Assembly: GCF_018398935.1 (NCBI RefSeq)
Contig: NZ_CP074694.1
Span: 3,330,001 to 3,362,000, forward strand
Source: Telmatocola sphagniphila
GTDB taxonomy: Bacteria; Planctomycetota; Planctomycetia; Gemmatales; Gemmataceae
DNA: 32,000 nucleotides
Reading direction: 5' to 3'
In this document: piece after piece, positions 481 to 27,541 of the stretch
Layout: each line of letters opens with the position of its first letter
Numbering within the stretch: position 1 is the stretch's first letter
Notes under the pieces: model-generated
Told to the model about the DNA's origin: nothing
The model's database searches: none
Seen by the model: the letters and a program-made list of their open reading frames with translations, nothing else
Program-made: the position numbers and the translations under genes

Positions 481-3099
481 CTACTTTTGGAACAAACGCG
501 ATCGCTTGTTAGCCGACGATTCAAGATAGGCCAACAGGTCGAGAATCTCTTCTTCCGTCAGCATATCGACCAGATGCTCGGGCATAGGTGATACTTTCGA
601 AACTTCTCGAATTTCAATTTCATTTTTCTTGATCTCGACACGATCAATCGACAGCGGATCGGGTTGCACGGCAATCTTTTCCGGTGTGTCATCGACAATT
701 CGGCCCACTACCGTCTTGCCGCCAACGGTAACAATTCGCTCGTTCATATACTGTTCCGACAGCACCTTGGAAGGCTCAATAATCGATTCCAGAATAGCGC
801 GGCGATCGAACCGGCTGGCGACCGAAGTCAAATCGGGGCCGACCGCACCGCCTTCATCGCCCAGGCGATGACATTTCACGCACTGGCCCACAACAAAGGC
901 TTCTTTGCCTTTTTCGAAATTGCGGCCGCGATCCACCTTATCGAGTTTGGGCATGATATCCGACATGGTGTAAGCTTTGACCACTGTAGTACGAGGCTTG
1001 TAGTTATAAGTTGCGACGGCCGTGACGTTCAGAGTCTTGAGCAGCGGTTCCAGTTCTTTTCGTTCAGAATCGAGTAGATTCGAAACTGCCTCGCGAAGGA
1101 AGTTCTTCAGGAAGTTGGGGAAGCTGGCTCCCTCCGAATACCCGCGCCCAGCATCGGCGAACCATTTGTCCATCATGGGATCGTGCTTGAGTGACTTCCA
1201 ATCCTTTTTGAAATAGCTGAAGTATTCCTTGCGTTGATCCATGGTCCAGTTGCCGGGCAACAAGGTCCGCAGATGGAACAGGAAGAACAAAACATCTTCC
1301 TGGTAGGTGGCGTGAGCCATCTCTTTGAGTACTTTCGTCGCAATTCCGGGAGCTTGCAGATAAATCAAGAGTTGAGCGGTTTCCCGGTTCAAATCCCGGC
1401 TCGCCGTCGGGAAGAGCGGATCGACTTCCGCGATAATCTTCTTCGCTATAGTGAAAGCAGGCCGTCCCTGTCGAATGAAGGCAAGATCCCACACCCGCAG
1501 TTTGTCCAGTTGCAGCACCGGCGATAATGAGGAGATCGGAAAAGCTTCCAGGGCCTTGAGCAATTCCGGTTGAAGCTTGGCATCACCGACACGAGCCAGA
1601 GCCAACAAAGCGGTCAGTGCGGCGGCCGGATTTTTCTCGGTCAGCGCCTTGTCCTTCCATTCGGCCACTGGCTGAGCTTCCAGAGCGATGCGGGCGGAAT
1701 ACTGCAAAAATCGATCAGGGCTGCTCAGGTGCGGCCAGACAAACGATACAGCTTTGGGATCGACTTTACCCTGAAAAGCTTCGATTTCATGCCGAAGTTT
1801 TCTCTCTGCTTCGCCAGCGGTATTCTTCAAATCGGCCGGAGCAGTCGATTCCTTGCCAGTATACGTGACACGATAAAGACCGGATTGATTGTTTCGACCG
1901 CCAATTGTGAAATAAAGAGCGCCATCATTGCCCACTACCGCGTCCGTTAAGGGCAACGGCTTTTTGGGTGCATTCGGATCGGTGAGGCTGATGGGAGCCA
2001 CAAAGTTTTCGAAGGTGGCCGTGTAGCTGGATCCTTTGGGGGTCAAATGCACAGCCAAAAGTCGCCCGTAGGTCCAATCGAGCATGTAGAGTGCTTTTTG
2101 ATATTTCGCTGGGAATTTGGCCCCGGTGCCGTTGGTCACACCGGTGGGAGAGCCGACACCGACATCTACTGCCGCAGGCAGGCTATCCGGATAGTAGGAG
2201 GGCCATTTTCCGGTGCCGGAACGCCAGCCGAATTCCGCACCGCTAATGCAGTGAAGGATGCGAATCGGCCGATACCAGGGCATGCCCCAGTCCCATTCCA
2301 TATCGCTATCGAAAGCGAATAATTCGCCATCACCATTAAACGCCATGTCATAAGTGTTGCGAAACCCCGCTAGCATCAACTGAATTTTCTGACCATCTGC
2401 ATCGGTTCGAACGATATAACCGCCCGGGGCTACAATACCCGCGGCGTGGCCATTGCCATCCCATTGTCGGGGTAGCAGGTGATCTTCTTTATAATTGCGG
2501 TGCGGCGAATCCTCGGAGAGCCCCTTGGGTAATTTGGTATGATTGCCGTTCACCACATAAATCATCTTGTCCGGCCCCAGGACTAAAGCGTGCGGGCCAT
2601 GTTCACCGTCCCCTTCAAACCGTTTCAGAAACTTAACGCTAAACTTGCCGCTGTCACCTGCTTCATTGCAGCGATAGAGCCCGAAACCTTCGGGGCCACT
2701 GGCATTTACATACAGGCTGTCGAACGCCCAGAGTAAACCCATCGCTTCGCTCAAAGGGATATCCAACTTTTCGACCTTGGAAACTTTGCCATCCATGATG
2801 GTGAAACGCAGCATCGGCTGGGACCGCTGACCGGAAACGATCAAACGACCGGCCCCATCCTTGCACATGTTGATCCAGGAACCCTCGCTTGCCGAATCGG
2901 ACGTGTGGATCAATTCGACTTTGAAATCGGGAAGCGTCTTGAGAAACTCCGCTTCGGTAGCGGAGCGTTTTGGCCCTGTCGACTTCTTTTGAGCTGTCTT
3001 CTTTTGGGACGCCTTCGGTTCCTGAGCATTGAACGGGGAGAACGAGCCGAGGCCAACCAAAAGGCCCAGTATCGCTGCGCACCTAGCTATCTTCCGCAT
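481..3099 (-). CDS. Secreted PVC-type heme-binding protein: beta-propeller dehydrogenase-like N-terminal region, helical repeat middle, C-terminal CxxCH cytochrome c domain
   Basis: I moved the start to the ATG at 3099-3097 (MRKIARCAAILGLLVGLGSFSPFNAQE, a signal peptide) with AAGGA upstream. The C-terminus reads GQCVKCHRLGDEGGAVGPDLTSVASRFDRRAILESIIEPSKVLSEQY...PMPEHLVDMLTEEEILDLLAYLES, with CVKCH at 868-882. This is the Pirellula/Verrucomicrobium-type putative heme-binding domain. The propeller-like region contains GHAAGIVAPGGYIVRTDADG and WDWGMPWYRP. Confidence 0.85.
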   Translation of the reverse strand: MRKIARCAAILGLLVGLGSFSPFNAQEPKASQKKTAQKKSTGPKRSATEAEFLKTLPDFKVELIHTSDSASEGSWINMCKDGAGRLIVSGQRSQPMLRFTIMDGKVSKVEKLDIPLSEAMGLLWAFDSLYVNASGPEGFGLYRCNEAGDSGKFSVKFLKRFEGDGEHGPHALVLGPDKMIYVVNGNHTKLPKGLSEDSPHRNYKEDHLLPRQWDGNGHAAGIVAPGGYIVRTDADGQKIQLMLAGFRNTYDMAFNGDGELFAFDSDMEWDWGMPWYRPIRILHCISGAEFGWRSGTGKWPSYYPDSLPAAVDVGVGSPTGVTNGTGAKFPAKYQKALYMLDWTYGRLLAVHLTPKGSSYTATFENFVAPISLTDPNAPKKPLPLTDAVVGNDGALYFTIGGRNNQSGLYRVTYTGKESTAPADLKNTAGEAERKLRHEIEAFQGKVDPKAVSFVWPHLSSPDRFLQYSARIALEAQPVAEWKDKALTEKNPAAALTALLALARVGDAKLQPELLKALEAFPISSLSPVLQLDKLRVWDLAFIRQGRPAFTIAKKIIAEVDPLFPTASRDLNRETAQLLIYLQAPGIATKVLKEMAHATYQEDVLFFLFHLRTLLPGNWTMDQRKEYFSYFKKDWKSLKHDPMMDKWFADAGRGYSEGASFPNFLKNFLREAVSNLLDSERKELEPLLKTLNVTAVATYNYKPRTTVVKAYTMSDIMPKLDKVDRGRNFEKGKEAFVVGQCVKCHRLGDEGGAVGPDLTSVASRFDRRAILESIIEPSKVLSEQYMNERIVTVGGKTVVGRIVDDTPEKIAVQPDPLSIDRVEIKKNEIEIREVSKVSPMPEHLVDMLTEEEILDLLAYLESSANKRSRLFQK

Positions 3100-3196
3100 C
3101 ACGGGAGATCCTTTCGACTTGAGAGATTCAATCACTACAAAGCAAAAAAACAGGCGGGTGGGAACATATGCCTGTCCCCTATTTATTGTCGAAAAT

Positions 3197-3229
3197 GGGG
3201 GAGAAAGAAAGAGAAAAAGAAAAAAAGAA
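3197..3229 (+). repeat. 33-nt uninterrupted homopurine tract in the divergent promoter region
   Basis: GGGGGAGAAAGAAAGAGAAAAAGAAAAAAAGAA contains only A and G on the plus strand. It lies between the two divergent start codons at 3099 and 3338. Confidence 0.9.
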
Positions 3230-3337
3230 TCGGACGATACGCCGCTCAAACAATGCTCTTGAAATCGTTCGAAAACTCTGCGAGACTTAACTGGTCTTTC
3301 CTTCCCGCCGAAAAATCGCTTCCCTTTGGATGATTTC

Positions 3338-6300
3338 ATGAAGTCGTTCTCAGTTCCACTCTTGTGGGTTAGCCTTTGTTTGACTTATTGGGGAACTTCA
3401 ACCCCTTCCGTTTGGGCGGTCGACCCGGCGGAACTTCCCAAATGTCCGCCCGGTTGGAAAGTGGAGCTGGTAGCCGCGGTACCGAAGATTCAACACCCGT
3501 CGGTAGTCTGTTGTGCCCCGGATGGGCGTGTCTTTGTGGGTGAGGACCCCATGGATATGGGCAGCGACTCTCGGACGCCGACAGATCGGATTCTCTGTTT
3601 TCACCCCGATGGCAAGGTAACGGTATTCGCTGACAACCTCTATGCCGTTTTCGGGATGGCCTACATCGACGGGAAACTTTTCGTTCATCATTGTCCGAAA
3701 TTCTCAGTATTTACCGATGATCACGGTGTGGGCAAAGACCGTCAGGATCTGATCGAATGCACCAATCCCAATCCCGCCCCCGGCTTTAACGATCATATCC
3801 CTTCCAACATGCGACTGGCGATGGACGGCTATCTCTACGTCAGTACTGGTGATAAAGGGGTGTTTGGTGCCGTGGGGAAGGATGGCCGGAAATGCGAAAT
3901 CTATGGCGGTGGCGTGTTCCGCATCCGCCCCGATGGCACCGGGCTCGAAACTTACTGTACGGGTACCCGCAATCACCTGGACGTCGCCATAAACCGCGAA
4001 GATGAAATCTTCACCTACGACAATACCGATGATGGCAATGGTTGGTGGACCCGCGTCACCCACATGGTAGATGGCGGATTCTACGGCTATCCCTGGGATT
4101 ATAAACCCAGACGGCCCTACACACTTTGGATGATGACCGATTACGGCGGAGGAGCGCCCACCGGAGCTACTGCCTACAACGAAGATGCCTTGCCGGAAGT
4201 GTATCAGGGCAATCTGTTTCTCTGCGAATGGGGCCGAAAGCAACTGCTACGATTGATCGTTCAGCGGGAAGGCGGCAGCTACAAAATCGTCAAGCGAGAA
4301 GATTTTCTAACATCTGGGACGAAGGAGTTTCGTCCCGTAGGAATTTGTACGACGCCGGATGGGATGGGCTTCTACGTCACCGACTGGAATTTTTCAGGAT
4401 GGAAGCAGAACGTTCCAGCCGGTCGGCTACTCAAGGTGACCTACACCGGGGCCAGCAAGGCGACTGAAAAACCCAAGTGGTTCGTGCCAGCCGCCATCGG
4501 TGAAAAATTTGAGGCTTCGAATGAAGATTTAATTGCCGGTCTCAAACACCCTTCTCAGGAAGTCCGGCTGGTTGCCCAACGACGGTTGATCGAAAGAGGC
4601 CCTGAAGTTTCCAAACCACTTTTGACACTCTTATCCGATAATTCGAGCCCGGCTTACGCCCGATGGAGTGCAATCTGGGCACTGGACGCGATCTCCGGAG
4701 ACAGCCCGGCCACGAGGAAGGACATTGCAGTCTACCTCGGAGATTCCGATCCCTCCGTTCGAAGACAAGTCCTACGCGAATTGGGCTCTCGATCAGCAAA
4801 TGAAGCCACCAGCAAGATCATTTCCTGTCTGGAAGATGCCGATGCTTCCGTGCGTTTTCAGGCCGCTACGGCACTCGGACGAATTGGTAATTCGGCCGCT
4901 ATCACACCGCTTCTGCAGTACCTGAAGACAGAAGATTTATTCTCCCGATATGCGGCTTTCACCGCCTTGAACCGTATCGGACATACCGATCCGAAATATT
5001 GGGATAAGATCGTCGTCGGTTTAAGCGACCCTAATCCGCGCATTCAGGAAGGCACCACGTTTGCCATCCGCGAGACGTTTGAAAATGGTCTGGTTTATGC
5101 TTTAAAGGAATTGATCGCCGAGCCCGGAACCAATCCTAGCGTCCGAGTCCAGGCATTGCACTCTCTGGCAGAACTGCATCGGAAGCCGGCGCCCTGGAAG
5201 GGTCAGTGGTGGGGTACTCAGCCGGTTCGCAGCCCCAAGCCGCACGGCACTCTAGACTGGGTGGGAACCAAAACGGTCCTGAATACCTTGGCAGCGAGCT
5301 TAAAGGATGGGGATCCTCAGGTAGTTCACGCGGCTATCGAGGGAGTAATTGTCGCTCAGGACGAACAGTTTGTCCCTGGACTCGTGGAGCTCTTCCAGAA
5401 GGATTCCAGCACTGAGACGAGAAAACTCGTTCTGCGAGCAGCGGCCGTGATCTCGAAACCGGCACCGTTCACCGATCTCGTAACAAAAGTTCTTGAGGAT
5501 CCGGTCGCGAATAAATCCCTGCTGGACGAGGCGATCAGAGTCGGCGACCGAATCGGCAGCCCGGGAATTCAAACGGCGCTTGTTAAACTCGTTTCTCAGG
5601 ATCTTCCACCGGAGACACTTTCGAAATTGCTGCGAGCCGTCGGAAATCGAGGATTGAAAGACGCGATTCCCGCAGTCGCTAACCGCGTGAGCAACGACAA
5701 CGCGAATGTCCGAGAATCGGCCGTTTTTGCACTGACGAAAATGGGAGATGCCGCTTCCCTTCATGCTTTGACCCCTCTGCTTTCTTCCCCCAACCTCGAA
5801 ACCCGAAAAGTGGCCGTGAACGCCATTGGGTCTCTCAAAAGTCCTGCCGCTACAGAGGGTTTGTTGGGGGCATTTGACCGAGCCGAGACTCGCTACGAAG
5901 CTCTGCTCGGCTTATCGAAATTGACCGATTCCCGGGCACTTCCCGCCTATCTGGTCGGGTTAGCCAGCAAGAATGCCACGCTTCGGGCGGATTGCCGTAA
6001 GGCATTGAGCGATGTTCGAAATCTGGTCTATCCAGAAATCGAAAAACGATTGGATGCAGGAGCAATTTCTCCGGAAGTAGTCGGAGAATTGCAAAGCATC
6101 TACGCAGCGAAGTCTCCCATCAAGTGGAAATTGCTAGGCCCCTTCGCGGTCGACTCCGAAATTCCCTTCGATCTCCAGAAGCCCGATCTGAGGAAAGAAT
6201 ACTCTGGTCGGGAGGCCCGAAAGTTTCGATGGAAGTCAATTCCCACGCAAGATCGAGATCCCGCCAATTTGGACTGGCGAAGAGAAGTTCGTATCGATGG

Positions 6301-7066
6301 CCCCAGTAAAGCGTTTGGCCAAAGCGAAGTCTATTCTCCCGTCGCCGGAGAGATAACTCTCGAAGGAAGTTTCAGTGGTGCCGAATTGCGTTTGTGGCTG
6401 AATGGTGAACAAATTTTCAAATCGGAAAAAGCTGGTCGAATTTCGCTCAACGCTAAAACTCAGGCCGGGGAGAACATGCTCATCGCCGAAGCCCTCACCA
6501 CGGGCGGTTCCTGGACTCTGCGATTGGCCGCCAACACTCCGAAATCAGGAAAACTGTTTGCGGCCAGCGCTGCCAAGCCGATCGATATCAAGAAGTTTAG
6601 CGAGCATGCTTTGAAGAAATCCGGCTCCGCCGAACGCGGTAAGCTGCTCTTCTCGGACATTCAGGGACTAGGATGCATCAAGTGTCACAAAGTCGGCAAT
6701 CTTGGAACGGGAGAAGTCGGCCCCGACCTTCTCGGAGTAGGAGCCAAATACAACCGGGAAATTCTGATTGAATCGGTGCTCTACCCGTCCAAACAAATTT
6801 TGGATGGCTACCAACAAACCCGGATTGCAACTTCTTCGGGTCAGGTAAAACTGGGCATCGTTCGCGGTGAAACCGGTGATGCCATTACTCTGATTGATGT
6901 CGATGGGAAGAAAGAGTCCATTAAGAAAGTCGATATCGAAGAACGGAAAGTCCTAGATAAATCCTTGATGCCGGACGGTCTGCAGGCCGGGCTGTCGCTT
7001 CAAGATTTCAGCGACCTGATAGCCTTTTTGGAAAGCTTGAAAGAAAAGCCGCCCGAGAAAAAGTGA
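3338..7066 (+). CDS. Secreted PVC-type heme-binding protein: membrane-bound-dehydrogenase-like domain, long HEAT-repeat region, beta-sandwich, C-terminal CxxCH cytochrome c domain
   Basis: I prefer the ATG at 3338 (MKSFSVPLLWVSLCLTYWGTSTPSVWA, a signal peptide) to the TTG at 3326 used by the ORF track. The N-terminus reads PPGWKVELVAAVPKIQHPSVVCCAPDGRVFVGEDPMDMG. HEAT-like repeats are visible (DPSVRRQVLRELG, DADASVRFQAATALGRIG, DNANVRESAVFALTKMG, NLETRKVAVNAIGSL). The C-terminus reads GCIKCHKVGNLGTGEVGPDLLGVGAKYNREILIESVLYPSKQILDGY...LMPDGLQAGLSLQDFSDLIAFLESL, with CIKCH at 6674-6688. That C-terminal domain is paralogous to the one in the 481-3099 gene. Confidence 0.85.
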   Translation: MKSFSVPLLWVSLCLTYWGTSTPSVWAVDPAELPKCPPGWKVELVAAVPKIQHPSVVCCAPDGRVFVGEDPMDMGSDSRTPTDRILCFHPDGKVTVFADNLYAVFGMAYIDGKLFVHHCPKFSVFTDDHGVGKDRQDLIECTNPNPAPGFNDHIPSNMRLAMDGYLYVSTGDKGVFGAVGKDGRKCEIYGGGVFRIRPDGTGLETYCTGTRNHLDVAINREDEIFTYDNTDDGNGWWTRVTHMVDGGFYGYPWDYKPRRPYTLWMMTDYGGGAPTGATAYNEDALPEVYQGNLFLCEWGRKQLLRLIVQREGGSYKIVKREDFLTSGTKEFRPVGICTTPDGMGFYVTDWNFSGWKQNVPAGRLLKVTYTGASKATEKPKWFVPAAIGEKFEASNEDLIAGLKHPSQEVRLVAQRRLIERGPEVSKPLLTLLSDNSSPAYARWSAIWALDAISGDSPATRKDIAVYLGDSDPSVRRQVLRELGSRSANEATSKIISCLEDADASVRFQAATALGRIGNSAAITPLLQYLKTEDLFSRYAAFTALNRIGHTDPKYWDKIVVGLSDPNPRIQEGTTFAIRETFENGLVYALKELIAEPGTNPSVRVQALHSLAELHRKPAPWKGQWWGTQPVRSPKPHGTLDWVGTKTVLNTLAASLKDGDPQVVHAAIEGVIVAQDEQFVPGLVELFQKDSSTETRKLVLRAAAVISKPAPFTDLVTKVLEDPVANKSLLDEAIRVGDRIGSPGIQTALVKLVSQDLPPETLSKLLRAVGNRGLKDAIPAVANRVSNDNANVRESAVFALTKMGDAASLHALTPLLSSPNLETRKVAVNAIGSLKSPAATEGLLGAFDRAETRYEALLGLSKLTDSRALPAYLVGLASKNATLRADCRKALSDVRNLVYPEIEKRLDAGAISPEVVGELQSIYAAKSPIKWKLLGPFAVDSEIPFDLQKPDLRKEYSGREARKFRWKSIPTQDRDPANLDWRREVRIDGPSKAFGQSEVYSPVAGEITLEGSFSGAELRLWLNGEQIFKSEKAGRISLNAKTQAGENMLIAEALTTGGSWTLRLAANTPKSGKLFAASAAKPIDIKKFSEHALKKSGSAERGKLLFSDIQGLGCIKCHKVGNLGTGEVGPDLLGVGAKYNREILIESVLYPSKQILDGYQQTRIATSSGQVKLGIVRGETGDAITLIDVDGKKESIKKVDIEERKVLDKSLMPDGLQAGLSLQDFSDLIAFLESLKEKPPEKK

Positions 7067-20571: not shown

Positions 20572-21201
20572 TCAGTTGGAATACTCCGGCGCTTCACAGC
20601 CCTGCTTCTGGAGTTCCGGTTGGACCACATCTTTCCAGCAATTCGGGCAGATGCTGTGGCTGAATTTCGCTTCGGAATGTTCCTTGAAGTAGGCTTCCAC
20701 GCGATGCCAGTAGTTATGATCGTCTCGTATGCTTTTGCAATAAGAACAGATGGGGAGCAACCCCTGGAGTTGTTTCACCTTGGCGAGTGCGTTTTCCAGC
20801 TCTTTGACGCGTTCGAATAACTCGGCCTGCAGATTGACCATTCTCGCGCCGACGCTGACTCGGGCCAGCAATTCCTCTTTATCGAACGGCTTGGTCACAT
20901 AGTCGTTCGCTCCCGCTTTGAGACCCCGGAGAATGTACTCTTTACTCCCCCGGGAGGTGAGCAGGATGATGTAGACTCCGGGAAGCTTGGGTTCCTGACG
21001 AATGCGCTGACAGACTTCTATGCCGTCCATTTCTGACATCAGCCAATCCAGCACCACCAGTTGCGGCGGGTTTTCTCCCTTGAGAATTTCCCAGGCTTCC
21101 GTTCCATCAGTCGTAGATGTTACTTCATAGCCGCCGCGCGTCAGCATCGTTTCCAGTTCAATTCGGGAAACGTCGTCGTCATCCGCGATCAAGACACGCA
21201 T
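20572..21201 (-). CDS. Response regulator: receiver domain, coiled-coil linker and a C-terminal Cys/His-rich (CxxC...H...CxxC) domain
   Basis: The REC domain reads MRVLIADDDDVSRIELE...LVVLDWLMSEMDG...DYVTKPF. The C-terminus reads LLPICSYCKSIRDDHNYWHRVEAYFKEHSEAKFSHSICPNCW. A strong SD (GGAAGGAGG) precedes the ATG at 21201. The start overlaps the upstream kinase gene by 13 nt. Confidence 0.9.
   Translation of the reverse strand: MRVLIADDDDVSRIELETMLTRGGYEVTSTTDGTEAWEILKGENPPQLVVLDWLMSEMDGIEVCQRIRQEPKLPGVYIILLTSRGSKEYILRGLKAGANDYVTKPFDKEELLARVSVGARMVNLQAELFERVKELENALAKVKQLQGLLPICSYCKSIRDDHNYWHRVEAYFKEHSEAKFSHSICPNCWKDVVQPELQKQGCEAPEYSN
20632..20763 (-). other. Cys/His-rich putative metal-binding output module of the response regulator (residues about 147-190)
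   Basis: Candidate ligands are C152, C155, H162, H166, H175, H182, C185 and C188 in the stretch LPICSYCKSIRDDHNYWHRVEAYFKEHSEAKFSHSICPNCWK. I see no helix-turn-helix or enzymatic motif. Confidence 0.6.
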
Positions 21202-23903
21202 GGGGTGCCTCCTTCCACAAATTCCTTCAATGCCGTCTCCAGCCGAGCCACTTCCGCTTCCAGAACCTTATAAGTCTCCGAAGCTTCAGAAAAATTGGCA
21301 TTTCGACCCATTATTTCCAACCGGCTGGCCAGTTCCGTGGCTAACCCCGCAGAAAACCCTGCCATTGAGCCTTTGAGTTTATGCGCTTTCCGTTCCAGGG
21401 AATCCGCATCCCGAACGAGGCAGGCCTTCTCGAGTTCGGGTAGAAGCTTTCCCGACTGCTTAATGAAGGATAGAACCATTTTTTCTAAAAGTTCGCGATC
21501 TCCCTCAACTCGCTCCAACAGCCGGACCGGATCAAAGATTGCGGTCGCCGTGCTAGCGCCCTCTAACGTTGTTTCTTCCGCCTCGATTTCCGGTATTTCG
21601 GGCAAAAAGCGGTCGAGCGTTTCAAAAAATTCCTTCACTCGCAATGGCTTGGAGATATACCCATCCATTCCCGCTTGCAGACAGCGTTCTTTGTCTCCTT
21701 TCATGGCGTGGGCTGTGAGAGCCAGAATGGGAACGCGTCCGTTCTTGTCCTTATCCCATTCGCGAATTTTCGCCGTGGCCGCGAACCCATCCATTTCCGG
21801 CATCTGGACATCCATCAGGACCAGGTCGAACTTGTGGCGGGTGTAGACCTGTAATGCTTCCCGGCCATTATTGGTTACATGAACCTTGTGACCCCGTTTT
21901 TCGAGTAAGCGCAAGGCCAGCATCTGGTTGACTTCATTATCGTCGGCCAGCAAAATGCGCCGGCCCGATTTGGATGAGAGACTCGCAATCGCCTTGCTGT
22001 CAGGCCGAACGCGGGTCGATTTCCCATTGCGATAATACGTGCTGCCCCGACGTTCGATGCTATCGGACAGTTCGAAATGCACGTCGAAGAAGAAGGTGCT
22101 CCCCTTACCCACTTCGCTCTTGACTTTCAGTTCCCCGGCGAGCAGTTCCACCAGTTGAGCGGATATAGCCAGCCCCAGTCCGGTACCTCCAAATCGTCGT
22201 GTGGTCGAACTGTCGGCTTGAGTGAAGGCTTCGAATATGAGCGGAAGCTTGTCTTCGGATATTCCGATTCCTGTATCCTCCACACTTACCGCAAGGCAGA
22301 CATCCGTCTCTGTCATGGCCTTGAGTGTGACGTGAACGACAACCCGGCCTTTCTCGGTGAACTTAATCGCATTACCAACCAGGTTGGTTATGATTTGCCG
22401 GAAGCGAAGGGGATCACCCAGCAAATTGTCGGGAACGTCCTCGCTGATCTCGCCCTGAAGAACCAGTCCCTTGGTGTCCGCACGGACCTTCATCACTTTC
22501 AGGGTGTCGTGAATATTATGCCGGAGCGAAAAGGCGATACAGTCCAGATCCAATTTTCCGGCTTCGATCTTGGAAAAATCGAGAATATCATCGATCAGTC
22601 GCAACAGCGCATCTGCCGAGGACTTCACCGTCAGCAGGTAATCTCGCTGCTCCCGCGTCAGGTCGCTGTCCAACGCCAATTCGGTCATCCCCAGGATACC
22701 GTTCATCGGGGTTCGAATTTCATGGGACATATTGGCCAAAAATTCGCTCTTGGCCTGATTGGCAGCCTCGGCGGCCTGCCGGGCTTTTTGCATCTCCTCA
22801 GCGGCCAGTTTTCGTAAAGTGATGTCCTGAAACTGGTTGATGAAGTATTGAGGACGCCGGTCTTCATCTCGAATGAGCGAGGAATTCAGTTGTACCCAGA
22901 TGAAGTGGCCCTGCTTGTGGATGAATCGCTTTTCCATCTGGTAGGTCGGTATCTCCCCCATCAGGACTTTCTGCACAAACTCTAAATCTTCTGCGAGATC
23001 ATCGGCGTGGGTGATCATCTGAAAATTCATGGCGAGCATTTGCGCCTCGGAGTATCCGAGGATCGCGCAGAGCGCGGAGTTCACATCGAGAAACTTCCCG
23101 TTGAGGGACACCAGTGCCATGCCCACCGCCGCGAAGTCAAAGCCTCCTCGGAAGCGTTCTTCACTTTCTCGCAACTTTTCCGTTGTCTGGCGTAGCGCGT
23201 CGGTCTGCCGCATCAATTGCGCGGTTCGCTGCTGAACGGTCTGTTCGATCCACTCCCCGGCGGTTTCCAATTGGGCCTGTCGCTCGGCCATTGCCCGCAT
23301 TCGCTGGGCGCCGAGAATGCAGGCGGGAATCAGAAACAAATCCTCGAATAAAATCCAGCCGGTGTGTTCCAACCAGCGCCATTGAGAGGGATTTGCGTCA
23401 CCGAAAACCGACAGCGGCCAGTAAGTACCGCGTATGTAGTGATCCAGTGCCACGACCAGCGAGGCGGAAATAATGACTCGCCAATCCCGATAAAAAGCCA
23501 GAAAAGCTAAAGAACCGAAGATGTGAAAATGCGTTTCGAGGCGGCCACCCGTCAGGTGAATCAAAAGGCAGCTCATCATCATTTGAGCGATGCCCATGCA
23601 ATGGCGGGTGATAACTCCACCCGGACTGCACAGGGCCAGCAACATCGGGAAAATCACAATCATACCACCGAGGAAGAGAGCAGCCCAGACGTGAGAGTGA
23701 ACTTCGCTGGCGGCCCCTTTCCAGGTGTAGGGGGAGATCCAGATGGAAGTGACAATGCAGATGAACCATTCCAGCGCCAGGAAGTAGGCGAACCAGCGAT
23801 CTGTTCGACGGAGGTTGACTTGCTCCTGTTCGATATAGAGTCGGTTCGCACGACGTGCGACCTCGTCGTAGGATTCCGATTGCTGAATTTCCGGGTGGGT
23901 CAT
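21189..23903 (-). CDS. Hybrid sensor histidine kinase: 6-TM His-rich N-terminal domain, PAS, HisKA, HATPase_c, REC, Hpt
   Basis: Six hydrophobic segments span residues 36-200. The PAS region reads FRGGFDFAAVGMALVSLNGKFLDVNSALCAILGYS. The H-box is FLANMSHEIRTPMNGILG, with the His codon at 22722-22724. The G-boxes read DTGIGI...RRFGGTGLGLAIS. The receiver reads RILLADDNEVNQ...LVLMDVQMPEMDG. The Hpt motif is ERKAHKLKGSMAGF. Confidence 0.9.
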   Translation of the reverse strand: MTHPEIQQSESYDEVARRANRLYIEQEQVNLRRTDRWFAYFLALEWFICIVTSIWISPYTWKGAASEVHSHVWAALFLGGMIVIFPMLLALCSPGGVITRHCMGIAQMMMSCLLIHLTGGRLETHFHIFGSLAFLAFYRDWRVIISASLVVALDHYIRGTYWPLSVFGDANPSQWRWLEHTGWILFEDLFLIPACILGAQRMRAMAERQAQLETAGEWIEQTVQQRTAQLMRQTDALRQTTEKLRESEERFRGGFDFAAVGMALVSLNGKFLDVNSALCAILGYSEAQMLAMNFQMITHADDLAEDLEFVQKVLMGEIPTYQMEKRFIHKQGHFIWVQLNSSLIRDEDRRPQYFINQFQDITLRKLAAEEMQKARQAAEAANQAKSEFLANMSHEIRTPMNGILGMTELALDSDLTREQRDYLLTVKSSADALLRLIDDILDFSKIEAGKLDLDCIAFSLRHNIHDTLKVMKVRADTKGLVLQGEISEDVPDNLLGDPLRFRQIITNLVGNAIKFTEKGRVVVHVTLKAMTETDVCLAVSVEDTGIGISEDKLPLIFEAFTQADSSTTRRFGGTGLGLAISAQLVELLAGELKVKSEVGKGSTFFFDVHFELSDSIERRGSTYYRNGKSTRVRPDSKAIASLSSKSGRRILLADDNEVNQMLALRLLEKRGHKVHVTNNGREALQVYTRHKFDLVLMDVQMPEMDGFAATAKIREWDKDKNGRVPILALTAHAMKGDKERCLQAGMDGYISKPLRVKEFFETLDRFLPEIPEIEAEETTLEGASTATAIFDPVRLLERVEGDRELLEKMVLSFIKQSGKLLPELEKACLVRDADSLERKAHKLKGSMAGFSAGLATELASRLEIMGRNANFSEASETYKVLEAEVARLETALKEFVEGGTPCVS

Positions 23904-23927
23904 TTTTATCTCGGAATAAAGAATTCG

Positions 23928-24539
23928 TTAATCGAAGAGGCTGCATCCATAGACGGGAGCCAATCGTTCATAATTGAGTTCCCCACTGAGAATGGCCTGA
24001 ATGCTTTGAATGCCGATACAATCCCCACGCTGAGAGGCCGCAGGAGTGATCCCTCCGCTAAAGGCCAAATTTCCCCGAGCGTCGTAAAGCAGTACTTGAC
24101 CCGAGGCTTCCAGGCCAAATTTTTTGGATTCCGTCCCGCCGAGATCGGTAATAACTACAGTTGCATGGATTTCGCGCGCCTCTTCATAAAGTTCCGACTG
24201 TACCCACTCCAGGGGCATACCTGTCGGCTTCAGTACGAGAATGTAGCTCTCGACTTTCTTGCCAGACAATTTCAGTAGTAACTCCAACTCCTTGAGACTC
24301 GCATGCGAGCACTCACAATGCGGATGCAGAGCAAATACCAGTCGAATTTTTCCGGGAGTCGAGTTCAAACTGGTACTGGCCGGCCAGACCGGACTGGCAG
24401 TCCCGACCACCGCTGGGTTCGTGTCCGAATCCCAAAGGCTGGAGAAGCCCAGGACGACGGTCACCATCCACAACAACCCGATTGCTGCGATTATGCTGGT
24501 CCAACCGCTCCAACGCCGACCTCGTGTCATTCCCGGCAT
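23928..24539 (-). CDS. Membrane-anchored thioredoxin-fold protein with a CxC motif (function unknown)
   Basis: I chose the ATG at 24539 (MPGMTRGRRWSGW...) over the TTG at 24545. The N-terminal TM anchor is WTSIIAAIGLLWMVTVVLGF. A beta-strand followed by HPHCECSHASLKELELLL sits where redoxin-fold proteins carry CxxC. A second Cys pair is present (RGDCIG and YGCSLFD). Its stop is 24 nt upstream of the hybrid kinase start. Confidence 0.55.
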   Translation of the reverse strand: MPGMTRGRRWSGWTSIIAAIGLLWMVTVVLGFSSLWDSDTNPAVVGTASPVWPASTSLNSTPGKIRLVFALHPHCECSHASLKELELLLKLSGKKVESYILVLKPTGMPLEWVQSELYEEAREIHATVVITDLGGTESKKFGLEASGQVLLYDARGNLAFSGGITPAASQRGDCIGIQSIQAILSGELNYERLAPVYGCSLFD

Positions 24540-24823
24540 CTTCAAAGACCCCTATTTACGATCTCATCCAACGTAAACTTAGTTCGGGAAGACCCCGTCA
24601 AAGCTAAGGGAATTCCTGATCGCAGCAGGAAGAAGTCCGATCTAAAATTCGTCAATGAGATGAAATATGCGGACACAATGCCAATTTTGGAATTTGGTTA
24701 AAAAGAGATCCGTTTTCACGTTGCTCAGGAATTTGATGAGATATATTTGCAGGAAGTCACAGAGTCCGGTTAGGGGAGCATTCCAAGCGCTTTTTTTCAA
24801 GTACCCGATTAAAGCTCAACCCC

Positions 24824-27541
24824 ATGTTGCACCCACGAGTTGAAGCTATGTATTCTATTGCAGCCGAAGTCCAACCTCCGACGATCATTCGATCCAACAT
24901 CTGGGGCAGACTTTTCGATTGCGTCAGTGAGGGTATAGAAATATACGACTTAGCCACCGGCAAGTTGGTAGACGTCAACCGTCCAATTTGCGATATGCAC
25001 GGCTATTCGAAGCTGGAATATCTCAGTAGTCCCCCCCAAACTCCTTTAGCTTTCGAGCACACGACGCTTGGTTTTGAGATGATGGCCGCGCGGCTCCGCG
25101 AAGGCGAGTCATTCTTTCAGGAATTCGAGAGGCGCCGAAAAGACGGAAGTTCGTTCCCAGCCGAAATTCGGGCGGAACTTTTCCAATCGGACAGAGAATA
25201 TCTCATTTTTCTGATCTCCGATATTTCGCAACGACGCCAGATCGAAAGTTCGCTTCGCGAGAGCGAACTGAAAATACGCACTATTCTCGACTCGGAACCG
25301 GAATGCGTGAAGTGCCTGGACGAGAATGGAATTGTCCTTCAGATTAATCCGGCCGGCGTGGCCATGATCGAGGCCGACTCCGCAAAGCAAGTTTTGAACC
25401 TGTGTGTTTTCCCATTGATCGTCCCGGAAGATCGGGAGCGCTATCGTGAAATGCTTCGAAGAGGGTTTTCCGGAGAATCGGTTACTCTCGAATACGAAAC
25501 CAACAGTCTGCGCGGCAACCGATTGATTTTTGAAACGCATTGCAGCCCCCTACGCGATTCCTCCAACAAAATCATTTCTCTGGTATCCATCACACGGGAC
25601 ATAACCGCCCGCAAAAAAGCTGAAAAAGCTCTATTCGCCAGCGAGGAGTTGTTTCGCACCTTCATGAATTACATTCCCATGGCGGCGTGGATTACCGATA
25701 CGCAGGGACGAGTTGTATTCGTGAGCGAAGGTTGTCGCAAACTTTTTCAGGTCTCCGATGGCGACTTAATTGGCAATGGATTTGCCAAACAGTTTCCGGA
25801 AGTCAGTACTTGCTTCAATTCTCAAAATCTCCCACATACGGATCTGGGCAATCGGCCATTCAAATCTTTGCATACCGGAATTCGTGCGGATGGCAGCAAG
25901 GGGGAATTTCTCGTCTACAAATTCCCGATTCGAACGGATCGGGAACTCGTAGGCGGAGTGGCGATCGATCTGACTGATCAGATTAAGATGCAGGAGGAGC
26001 TAATCTCGCTGGGACGGGCCGTTTCTGCTTCGACGCAGGGAATCCTGATTACCGATAACACTCTCCCGGAAAATCCGATCACTTATGTAAGCCCGGCCTT
26101 TGAAAGGCTGACCGGTTTTAGCCTTCAGGAGGCACTCGGACGAAACTGCCGGTTTCTGCAGGGTAAAGATACCGACCCGGCCAGTGTGGCCGTCATGCGT
26201 CAAACCATTAAATCCCAAACGTCCTGCAACATCGAAATTTTGAACTATCGCAAGGATGGCACGGCGTTCTGGAACGCGGTATTCATTAGCCCCATTCGGG
26301 ATGAGGCGGGCCGAGTTACGAATTTCATAGGCGTGCAGACGGATATTACCGAACGCCGTAAACTCGAAGAACAACTTCGGCAAGCCCTGAAAATGGAAGC
26401 GATCGGCCGTTTAGCCGGCGGAGTGGCCCATGACTTCAATAATTTGCTGACTGTGATTAACGGCTATAGCGATCTCCTGATCGAAAAATTGCGACCCGAA
26501 GATCCGATGCGGGATTTACTCGCAGAAATCCATAAAGCGGGTGAACGAGCCGGCGGATTAACCCGGCAGCTTCTGGCGTTCAGCCGGCAGCAGGTTCTCG
26601 AGCCCAAGATTTTGAACTTGAACGATGTACTATTTGAGAGTGAGAAATTGCTCCGGCGGTTGATCGGAGAAGATGTCATTCTCGATATTATTAAGGATCC
26701 TTCTCTCGGCTGTACCAAGCTCGACCCGGTTCAAATTGAACAGATCATCATCAATCTCTCGGTAAATGCCCAGGACGCGATGCCCCGGGGTGGGCTGTTG
26801 ACCATTCGCACCAGTTCTGAAAATGTCCTCGAAAACAACGCTCCGGGAACTTCCTCGATACCGCCGGGAGATTATATCTGCTTGAGCGTCCAGGATACGG
26901 GAATGGGCATCGATGACGACACACTCACTCGAATCTTCGAGCCCTTTTTTACGACCAAAGGTCTCGGCAAAGGCACCGGACTGGGTTTGTCCACGGTTCA
27001 TGGAATCGCCAGCCAATCTGGCGGTTATATCACCGTTTCCACGGCCGTCGGAAAAGGTACGACTTTCAAAATCTATTTTCCCAAGGTGGAATCCTCGGGC
27101 TGGAACAGAAAATCCATTATTAGTAACGGAAAGCTGCCTCGCGGCACCGAAACCATTCTGCTCGTCGAAGATGAGGATGCGGTTCGTATCTTGGCCAAGC
27201 ACATTTTGCGAACGTGCGGCTATACCGTACTGGACGCTCCAAATGGTAATGTTGCACTCGAGATCGCTCGAACCCATTTAGGGAATATCGATCTTCTGAT
27301 TTCCGATGTCGTGATGCCTTATCTGGGGGGCCGGGAACTCGCGGAGAAAATCCTCTCGATTCGACCCGATTGTCTCGTGTTATTTCTCTCGGGCTACACC
27401 GATGATGCCCTGCTGCGGCACGGCGTCCGCGAAGCGGAATTTGCCTTTTTACAAAAACCCTTTTCCCCGCCGCTGTTGGCCCATAAAGTTCGAGCGACTC
27501 TGGATGAAAAAACTCCCAGCCTTGAAGAAGTCTCCATTTAA
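24824..27541 (+). CDS. Multi-PAS LOV-domain hybrid histidine kinase (PAS x3, LOV, HisKA, HATPase_c, REC)
   Basis: Three PAS-like units are followed by the LOV motif GRNCRFLQG. The H-box is LAGGVAHDFNNLLTVINGYSDLL. The ATPase boxes read NLSVNAQDAMP, VQDTGMGID and GKGTGLGLSTVHGI. The C-terminal receiver reads TILLVEDEDAVR...LLISDVVMPYLGG...LQKPF. No Hpt domain is present. Confidence 0.9.
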   Translation: MLHPRVEAMYSIAAEVQPPTIIRSNIWGRLFDCVSEGIEIYDLATGKLVDVNRPICDMHGYSKLEYLSSPPQTPLAFEHTTLGFEMMAARLREGESFFQEFERRRKDGSSFPAEIRAELFQSDREYLIFLISDISQRRQIESSLRESELKIRTILDSEPECVKCLDENGIVLQINPAGVAMIEADSAKQVLNLCVFPLIVPEDRERYREMLRRGFSGESVTLEYETNSLRGNRLIFETHCSPLRDSSNKIISLVSITRDITARKKAEKALFASEELFRTFMNYIPMAAWITDTQGRVVFVSEGCRKLFQVSDGDLIGNGFAKQFPEVSTCFNSQNLPHTDLGNRPFKSLHTGIRADGSKGEFLVYKFPIRTDRELVGGVAIDLTDQIKMQEELISLGRAVSASTQGILITDNTLPENPITYVSPAFERLTGFSLQEALGRNCRFLQGKDTDPASVAVMRQTIKSQTSCNIEILNYRKDGTAFWNAVFISPIRDEAGRVTNFIGVQTDITERRKLEEQLRQALKMEAIGRLAGGVAHDFNNLLTVINGYSDLLIEKLRPEDPMRDLLAEIHKAGERAGGLTRQLLAFSRQQVLEPKILNLNDVLFESEKLLRRLIGEDVILDIIKDPSLGCTKLDPVQIEQIIINLSVNAQDAMPRGGLLTIRTSSENVLENNAPGTSSIPPGDYICLSVQDTGMGIDDDTLTRIFEPFFTTKGLGKGTGLGLSTVHGIASQSGGYITVSTAVGKGTTFKIYFPKVESSGWNRKSIISNGKLPRGTETILLVEDEDAVRILAKHILRTCGYTVLDAPNGNVALEIARTHLGNIDLLISDVVMPYLGGRELAEKILSIRPDCLVLFLSGYTDDALLRHGVREAEFAFLQKPFSPPLLAHKVRATLDEKTPSLEEVSI
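26021..26350 (+). other. LOV (light-oxygen-voltage) flavin-binding PAS domain, residues about 400-509 of the kinase
   Basis: GILITDNTLPENPITYVSPAFERLTGFSLQEALGRNCRFLQGKDTDPASVAVMRQTIKSQTSCNIEILNYRKDGTAFWNAVFISPIRDEAGRVTNFIGVQTDITERR can be lined up by eye with YtvA/phototropin LOV cores. The adduct-forming Cys442 codon is at 26147-26149. Confidence 0.85.

Follow-up and report, generated by a model that had tools for sequence, protein, structure and literature searches.

A pair of genes for the thioredoxin-fold protein RedB and the sensor kinase RedC has been described by name in the red operon of Myxococcus xanthus, where redB lies directly upstream of the kinase gene. The N-terminal region of RedC was considered a probable sensing domain for a signal which was not identified, and mutants of redA, redB and redG had no detectable (developmental) phenotype (PMC2755868). 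No later work on RedB or on the RedC sensor was found in the literature. A related operon is present in Telmatocola sphagniphila (Planctomycetota), on a stretch of 32,000 nucleotides of contig NZ_CP074694.1 (positions 3,330,001 to 3,362,000 of the forward strand), which is referred to here as the window and is numbered from its first letter. On the minus strand, a redB-like gene (23928-24539; 203 amino acids from the ATG; a TTG at 24545 is an alternative start) is followed after a gap of 24 nt by a hybrid kinase gene (21189-23903; 904 amino acids), which overlaps a response regulator gene (20572-21201; 209 amino acids) by 13 nt (21189-21201). As in M. xanthus, a RedB homologue is thus encoded directly upstream of a kinase with a RedC-type N-terminus. 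A divergent intergenic region of 284 bp (24540-24823) separates these three genes from a plus-strand gene for a LOV hybrid kinase (24824-27541; 905 amino acids). The operon is a member of a large two-protein membrane sensor family, known by name from the Myxococcus red operon only; its sensor is wired to an Hpt relay and a zinc-ribbon-like regulator, and next door is a LOV kinase whose transmitter is of a related lineage.

Among other known systems, RegB/PrrB-SenC/PrrC-RegA/PrrA of Rhodobacter, which combines a redox kinase with six transmembrane helices, a Sco-type protein and a regulator, is a close architectural analogue. The window operon likewise encodes a single-anchor, outward-facing thioredoxin-fold protein with Cys and His residues together with a multi-pass membrane kinase and a regulator. 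It differs in that its membrane domain is unrelated to any Pfam or NCBIfam model, its kinase is of the unorthodox REC-Hpt type and its regulator has no helix-turn-helix domain. Sco/SenC proteins are thioredoxin-fold copper proteins with a copper site formed by C-x3-C and a distal His (PMC7558416). The window RedB has C-x-C and not C-x3-C…H, and it does not match the Pfam SCO1-SenC model. A Sco protein was found among its fold matches (4hde, E 6e-4), a likeness at the level of the fold only; because the Sco motif is missing, the assignment of RedB as a Sco protein was rejected.

The association of RedB with the membrane domain was examined in both directions. Scanning a single genome of each species with the RedB alignment gave 74 RedB loci, of which 72 have room downstream, from Acidobacteriota, Planctomycetota, Verrucomicrobiota, Myxococcota, Gemmatimonadota, Binatota, Armatimonadota, Elusimicrobia, Eisenbacteria, Bdellovibrionales and a gammaproteobacterium. 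A RedC-type gene is the next same-strand gene downstream in 67 of the 72, which span about ten phyla, and lies within 6 kb in three more. In the reverse test, RedB was directly upstream of all three membrane-domain genes which had been picked irrespective of RedB. These two results show that RedB and the membrane domain are inherited together. RedB is also found ahead of the GGDEF-EAL version of the membrane domain, so it tracks the membrane domain and not the output. The Ser/Thr-kinase version (P0315), on a Joint Genome Institute (JGI) contig, is preceded by a protein of 198 amino acids without a Pfam match. When the genes around RedB were clustered, only those for the sensor and REC were conserved; neither RedA nor RedG was, and genes for copper, haem or oxidase functions did not recur. 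The conserved unit is therefore the RedB/RedC-type two-gene sensor and not the four-gene island. Loci which appear to have the membrane domain only are not output-less, as the single-sequence hidden Markov model (HMM) used for kinases missed transmitters of the CckA/PRK13557 type. Two further arrangements were seen upstream of RedB. A multicopper oxidase gene (L163:1-327, on the contig of locus L012, Chthonomonadales) lies approximately 2 kb upstream in a single case, and a second hybrid kinase gene is immediately upstream in loci L020, L053, L002, L007, L018 and L057, being on the opposite strand in L020 and L053, like the divergent layout in the window.

Comparison with a Myxococcus locus shows which parts of the red operon are shared. 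In locus L071 (Myxococcus sp. Y35) the gene order is RedB, an open reading frame (ORF) of 476 amino acids (approximately 465 from the first Met) that joins the membrane domain to a kinase, a protein with two REC domains and D60, a kinase-like protein of 242 amino acids with H24, a REC protein of 127 amino acids and then a protein which, judged by eye, resembles Xaa-Pro aminopeptidases of the M24 family. This is taken to be the red operon because D60 of RedD and H24 of RedE match the published positions (PMC2755868). The window membrane domain and the N-terminus of this RedC orthologue are 38% identical (E 9e-47). The RedG position is occupied by the protein of 467 amino acids (L071:13865-15268) for which the peptidase family was judged by eye, and a Peptidase_M24/Creatinase_N gene also adjoins the Ser/Thr-kinase version of the sensor on the JGI contig of P0315. 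Unlike the window, the M. xanthus operon continues with RedD (dual REC), RedE (a kinase-like phosphatase) and RedF (single REC), the partners of RedC in the RedCDEF four-component system, and with RedG. No RedD, RedE or RedF partner is encoded in the 32-kb window, where the sole other REC gene is that of the regulator with a four-Cys tail, and unlike in M. xanthus the membrane domain is fused via PAS to HisKA-REC-Hpt and paired with that regulator. The preliminary description of this DNA, which was made from the sequence alone, knew of no characterised system with this composition; that statement has to be qualified, since RedB and the RedC N-terminus are known from the red operon (PMC2755868), although this sensor pair is all that the window has in common with it.

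The RedC-type membrane sensor domain corresponds to kinase residues 1-215 (23259-23903, minus strand), for which Pfam has no model. A search with residues 1-230 found more than 1,590 proteins, with 50-60% identity across phyla; named relatives belong to Planctomycetota, Verrucomicrobiota, Acidobacteriota, Gemmatimonadota and Bacteroidota, and Pfam assigns no domain to this region in any of them. When 1.84 billion cluster representatives (clusters at 50% identity) were searched with a profile, 1,841 proteins matched at E<=1e-30, a number which rose to 3,316 at E<=1e-10. The domain is N-terminal in 148 of the 150 best matches, and in P0284 and P0328 it is preceded by an N-terminal extension. C-terminal partners were determined for a sample of 66 full-length members and are mostly histidine kinases linked through PAS or GAF, with or without REC and Hpt (51 have HATPase_c); a chemoreceptor signalling domain is present in two, GGDEF plus EAL in one and a Ser/Thr kinase in one. 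Such varied outputs are the signature of a sensory input domain. Neither Pfam nor NCBIfam matched the domain even at E<=10, and searches of the PDB yielded no match with the single sequence, none at E<=10 with the family profile and, for the structural model in Foldseek, none at E<=0.001. The best Foldseek matches were de novo haem-binding four-helix maquettes, which were discarded as too weak for use (E 0.14-0.4, TM-score ~0.29).

The AlphaFold2 model of this domain (mean predicted local distance difference test score, pLDDT, 89; predicted TM-score, pTM, 0.83) contains six membrane helices within kinase residues 37-205. The modelled helices comprise residues 5-60, 70-92, 97-117, 124-138, 141-161 and 176-239, with the N-terminal part predicted to be a cytoplasmic helix and the last helix continuing as a coiled coil towards PAS. 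Near-invariant residues of the family are H69, H71, H116, E123, H125, H127, Y138-R139-D140, D154, H155, R158, E179, H180 and W183, and the pattern HHHEHHYRDDHREHW is almost invariant over 65 RedB/sensor pairs. All seven near-invariant His are present in the window copy. With N-terminus and kinase both on the cytoplasmic side, the predicted topology places all of the conserved His and Glu at the outer (periplasmic) helix ends or in the outer loops.

UniProt lists exactly the small protein of the window as 'RedB protein'. A database search gave 103 homologues, among them two of Pirellula and Planctomycetota genomes which carry the name RedB at NCBI, and an HMM built from 30 family members matches the window protein with E 5e-68. 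No Pfam or NCBIfam match was obtained even at E<=10, including Thioredoxin, Redoxin, AhpC-TSA and SCO1-SenC. By its AlphaFold2 model (pLDDT 92), which has one N-terminal anchor helix (residues 11-40) followed by a thioredoxin fold, the small protein is predicted to be a thioredoxin-fold protein. The Arg residues R7, R9 and R10 precede the anchor helix, so by the positive-inside rule the thioredoxin domain is predicted to face the periplasm. Foldseek matched the model with probability 1.0 and E values down to 1e-7 to thioredoxin-like proteins, CcmG, StoA/ResA, TlpA, thiol peroxidases (Tpx) and Sco (PDB entries at this probability include 3u5r, 2ywi, 2cvb, 1kng, 3erw and 4txv), and the RedB family profile matched 2cvb in the PDB with E 2e-5. 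In window numbering, the residues invariant in the 30-member alignment are H72, P73, C75, C77, G162-G163-I164-T165 and C199. The signature H-P-C-C…GGIT…RGH…D…C is almost invariant over the 65 pairs, and the consensus motif of the family is H-P-x-C-P-C, the window copy reading HPHCECSH. C75 and C77 are at the N-terminus of helix 1 in the model, which is the canonical active-site position of thioredoxins, in a C-x-C motif (C75-E-C77) and not the C-x-x-C of thiol:disulfide oxidoreductases. Additional His (H74, H79) and an additional Cys (C174) were noted in the window RedB.

The position of these cysteines raises the question of whether RedB works as a thiol relay, of the peroxiredoxin or oxidoreductase type, in which C75-x-C77 and C199 would be oxidised by periplasmic oxidants or the disulfide machinery and would switch the kinase by contact, with the conserved His of the membrane domain serving in docking or a proton network and not as a metal site. 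C-x-C disulfides are redox-active. The thioredoxin fold, the Foldseek matches to Tpx, AhpC, CcmG, StoA/ResA and TlpA, and the three invariant Cys, which would fit a peroxidatic-plus-resolving layout, all speak for such a relay. It would, however, leave the near-invariance of seven membrane-embedded His and three or four carboxylates across phyla unexplained; the invariant H72 beside the Cys pair fits metal binding better, and the membrane domain has no conserved Cys which could act as the disulfide acceptor. A thiol relay is therefore considered unlikely, and a relay of the DsbB/DsbA or CcdA/ResA kind was dropped because the membrane domain has no invariant Cys.

The cytoplasmic part of the hybrid kinase (21189-23258, minus strand) consists of the coiled coil, PAS (residues 249-365), HisKA (384-449), HATPase (496-609), REC (650-762) and Hpt (809-890). 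This is the make-up of an unorthodox hybrid kinase; the HisKA, HATPase, REC and Hpt matches all exceed the Pfam gathering cut-offs, and the phosphorylation sites are intact in the kinase (H394 in SHEIRTP, D698 in LMDVQMP and H841 in HKLKGS) and in the regulator (D52). ArcB, BarA and TorS share with this kinase the single-chain order HisKA-HATPase-REC-Hpt and the complete set of phosphorylatable H, D and H. The best NCBIfam matches of the window kinase, with 451 bits to BarA and 426 bits to TorS, fall far short of the equivalog cut-offs (890 and 676 bits). In contrast to those systems, the sensor region is wholly different and the regulator ends in a four-Cys module and not in a DNA-binding domain.

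Pfam and NCBIfam match the regulator in REC only (residues 3-115), in agreement with the preliminary description, which had found neither a DNA-binding nor a known enzymatic output. After REC there is a predicted coiled coil (approximately residues 120-148) and then the four-Cys module (LLPIC152SYC155K…FSHSIC185PNC188). The tail pattern, …VKQLQGLLPIC-SY-CK-x2-R…YW…VE…F-S-H-x-I-C-P-x-C, lies within residues 140-195 (window 20617-20784, minus strand). Against Pfam the tail gave only sub-threshold zinc ribbons, the best of which (E 0.019) scored 15 bits where 27 are required, and neither the sequence nor the family profile found a relative in the PDB, where the Rad50 zinc-hook and L36 appeared as weak, non-significant matches. 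Nothing was found in the literature on this motif, and the one paper retrieved for response regulators with zinc ribbons was an unrelated one on archaeal two-component systems. The tail is best described as zinc-ribbon-like.

A metagenome scan with the regulator tail gave at least 600 matched stretches, including 591 confirmed relatives, and the following counts refer to the best 80 loci among these (L079-L158). REC plus the four-Cys tail is encoded in 77 of the 80, and RedB, the membrane domain and LOV are encoded in none. Among 67 adjacent same-strand ORFs, 26 contain HisKA and HATPase, 28 REC and 14 Hpt, with varied sensors (PAS, GAF, CHASE8 and Reg_prop). As ORFs for kinases and Hpt domains so often adjoin it, the four-Cys regulator family is probably a common terminal acceptor of Hpt-type relays. 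The tail can also follow sensor regions other than REC, as in P0037.

The whole three-gene operon recurs on the metagenome contigs L076, L077 and L159, where the regulator tails are 62-74% identical to that of the window and RedB, measured in L076 and L077, is 30-31% identical. The tight packing of the minus-strand genes, which had been read as an operon in the preliminary description, is consistent with these results. The nearest homologue of the regulator (71%), in L075, follows a kinase-REC-Hpt gene without a membrane domain or RedB; for this reason the window operon is regarded as a joining of two independently widespread modules. These four contigs (L075, L076, L077 and L159; ENA ERZ25039475 and ERZ25039523) are rich in frameshifts and resemble long-read assemblies without error correction. 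Each kinase gene is called there as three to five separate genes, and the gene tables give an incomplete picture of the domain architectures.

From these features a sensor and relay can be proposed. The His, Glu and Asp residues at the membrane face, on the outer ends of helices 2-6, would hold a metal cofactor just inside the outer face of the membrane. This cofactor would probably be binuclear, or would contain haem; two sites or a binuclear site are suggested because the two H-x-H motifs would direct their side chains differently. The His/Cys cluster of RedB (H72, C75, C77 and C199) may load this centre, keep it reduced or report on it. Helix 6, and the coiled coil which continues from it into PAS, would then be shifted when metal occupancy or the redox state changes, and this shift would set kinase activity. 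We infer that phosphate would flow through the operon along H394, D698, H841 (Hpt) and D52 of the regulator, whose coiled coil and zinc-ribbon-like tail would then act on a target. The membrane, redox or metal cue suggested in the preliminary description is consistent with the His-rich membrane domain and the outward-facing thioredoxin-fold protein. We put the probability of this overall account at about 0.5, the nature of the cofactor being its weakest step.

Several observations weigh against it. Deletion of redB in M. xanthus has no detectable effect on development, as cited above. The RedC orthologue in L071 (10543-11973) has lost three of the seven His (H69 to G, H116 to F and H155 to Q), all of which are retained in the window. 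The window RedB itself deviates from its family, with C-E-C (residues 75-77) in place of C-P-C and A-S-Q at 168-170 in place of R-G-H, a motif present in 60 of the 64 other pairs examined, the remaining pairs being off at one position. The membrane domain contains no invariant Cys, so RedB has no classical thiol-disulfide partner there. The metal or haem cofactor is deduced only from residue chemistry and predicted topology, the regulator tail could be assigned no output function from family or structure matches, and the cluster of His and carboxylates would fit a pH sensor equally well. The loss of H69, H116 and H155 suggests that Myxococcus RedC, which is the sole member to have been studied experimentally, may be degenerate or atypical. 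In Myxococcus-type RedC (L071, and also L033) the three His are gone while RedB keeps all of its invariant residues.

A pH sensor would detect periplasmic pH through protonation of buried His in the cluster, with RedB merely a co-transcribed accessory. Other kinases are known to sense acid through His residues, T. sphagniphila lives in acidic peat, and several of the metagenome loci of the regulator family appear, by their sample identifiers, to be derived from peat or bog. The absence of a phenotype in the M. xanthus redB mutant (PMC2755868) would also be expected of an accessory protein. The near-obligate adjacency of RedB (67 of 72 and three of three) and its invariant His/Cys site nevertheless argue for a working partnership, and the family is spread over many non-acidic habitats and phyla. 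This makes pH sensing an improbable explanation, and the cofactor-based sensor described above is preferred.

The divergently encoded LOV kinase has three N-terminal PAS-type domains, LOV (approximately residues 399-510, with Cys442), HisKA (H536), HATPase and REC (D828), with the phosphorylation sites intact; Pfam detects no Hpt in it and assigns HisKA, HATPase, REC and four stretches of PAS type. In the last of these stretches are the LOV core motifs GRNCRFLQG (with Cys442), NYRKDGTAFWN and FIGVQTDIT, and this region matches the NCBIfam models YtvA_fam (E 1e-47, residues 398-523) and BluLightHisKinLov (E 3e-43). The whole protein scores 513 bits against PRK13557, below the cut-off of 631. 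Hybrid kinases of the LOV-HK-REC type occur in Pseudomonas and Xanthomonas. The window kinase resembles the YtvA-type LOV proteins and the PRK13557 subfamily in its canonical LOV core, and differs from those LOV kinases in its three additional N-terminal PAS-type domains. On these motifs it is predicted to be a genuine hybrid kinase for blue light.

A place for it in the pathway of the operon is less certain. According to the preliminary description, light and the membrane cue may converge in a branched relay, in which REC of the LOV kinase (D828) exchanges phosphate with the Hpt of the neighbouring kinase (H841) and so reaches the one regulator. The two units are divergently adjacent over 284 bp, and it was correctly noted that there is a single Hpt, in the minus-strand kinase, and a single stand-alone regulator, which holds according to Pfam within the 32-kb window. 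L077 is the only relative in which an orthologue of the LOV kinase (GRNCRLLQ, ~60% identity) was found, at a distance of 4.7 kb downstream from the regulator, and a non-LOV paralogue (43% identity) is close to the nearest regulator homologue in L075. In addition, the transmitter and REC of the LOV kinase (residues 515-905; 26366-27541, plus strand) are 54-57% identical to the transmitter which is fused to the RedC-type domain in Pyrinomonadaceae (Acidobacteriota; L004, 11763-12902, as well as L005, L006, L040 and L003). This is as close as the LOV kinase is to its presumed orthologue in L077. Among 145 family representatives the LOV-kinase type is the better-matching transmitter in 21 and the BarA-like type of the window kinase in 65, and in Prosthecobacter loci kinases of the LOV-kinase type (34-38% identity) are directly downstream of the sensor gene.

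Against the branched relay, the LOV motif is present in none of the 74 RedB loci and none of the best 80 regulator loci, and no LOV is encoded in the fetched flanks of the operon copies in L076 (8 kb either side) or L159 (4 kb either side). The conservation of all four genes in related genomes, whose failure had been named in the preliminary description as a refutation, was thus not found. Other Hpt proteins may also be encoded in the rest of the 6.6-Mb genome. Hybrid kinases without an Hpt are very common and such genomes are dense in signalling genes, so the adjacency of the two units can be due to chance. The branched relay is accordingly regarded as doubtful, although the identity of the LOV kinase transmitter to those fused to RedC-type domains makes an evolutionary or functional tie between the two kinases plausible, and the LOV kinase may feed or share the operon pathway. 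A branched relay of this kind is compatible with any of the sensing models, including the cofactor-based sensor favoured here.

The four genes were confirmed at the positions and with the domains first assigned to them, by ORF and Pfam analysis, and they are not chance ORFs, as each has many homologues (E 1e-20 to 1e-116). No further REC, Hpt, kinase or other signalling gene is encoded elsewhere in the 32-kb window, whose remaining genes are for metabolic and envelope proteins. An Rfam scan of the window detected no RNA family, with none recognisable in the 284-bp intergenic region, and the five promoter-like sites found in that region are no excess over the 5.3 expected by chance. Two very large proteins, of 952 (481-3339, minus strand) and 1,246 amino acids (3326-7066, plus strand), each have a C-terminal cytochrome c motif. 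The larger additionally has DUF7133, glucose/sorbosone dehydrogenase-like and HEAT-repeat regions, and the two genes are on opposite strands with start regions overlapping by 14 nt.

The present comparison shows that neither the RedC N-terminus nor RedB is confined to Myxococcus. The RedB/RedC-type module has thousands of family members in the databases and loci in about ten phyla, and the REC/four-Cys regulator is itself an abundant (at least 600 matches), unmodelled orphan output. A link to the LOV kinase, if true, would be an example of the integration of light and redox signals, for which the evidence is thin. In its fullest form, which we advance only tentatively and think unlikely to hold in every part, the RedB and His-rich six-helix pair would be an undescribed, widespread class of membrane sensor with a hemerythrin-like or haem-copper-like binuclear metal centre for gas or redox sensing, served by a thioredoxin-fold chaperone or reductase, and its output in Telmatocola would be integrated with blue light via a LOV kinase of the same sensor-associated transmitter lineage. 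The signature of seven His, carboxylates and a partner with H-P-x-C-x-C…C provides a concrete, testable cofactor hypothesis. As neither Pfam nor NCBIfam models the RedB/RedC module and no structure of it has been solved, defining it would annotate a large orphan sensor family, and its fusion to kinases, chemoreceptors, cyclic di-GMP enzymes and Ser/Thr kinases would, if the proposal is true, make it a general input device.

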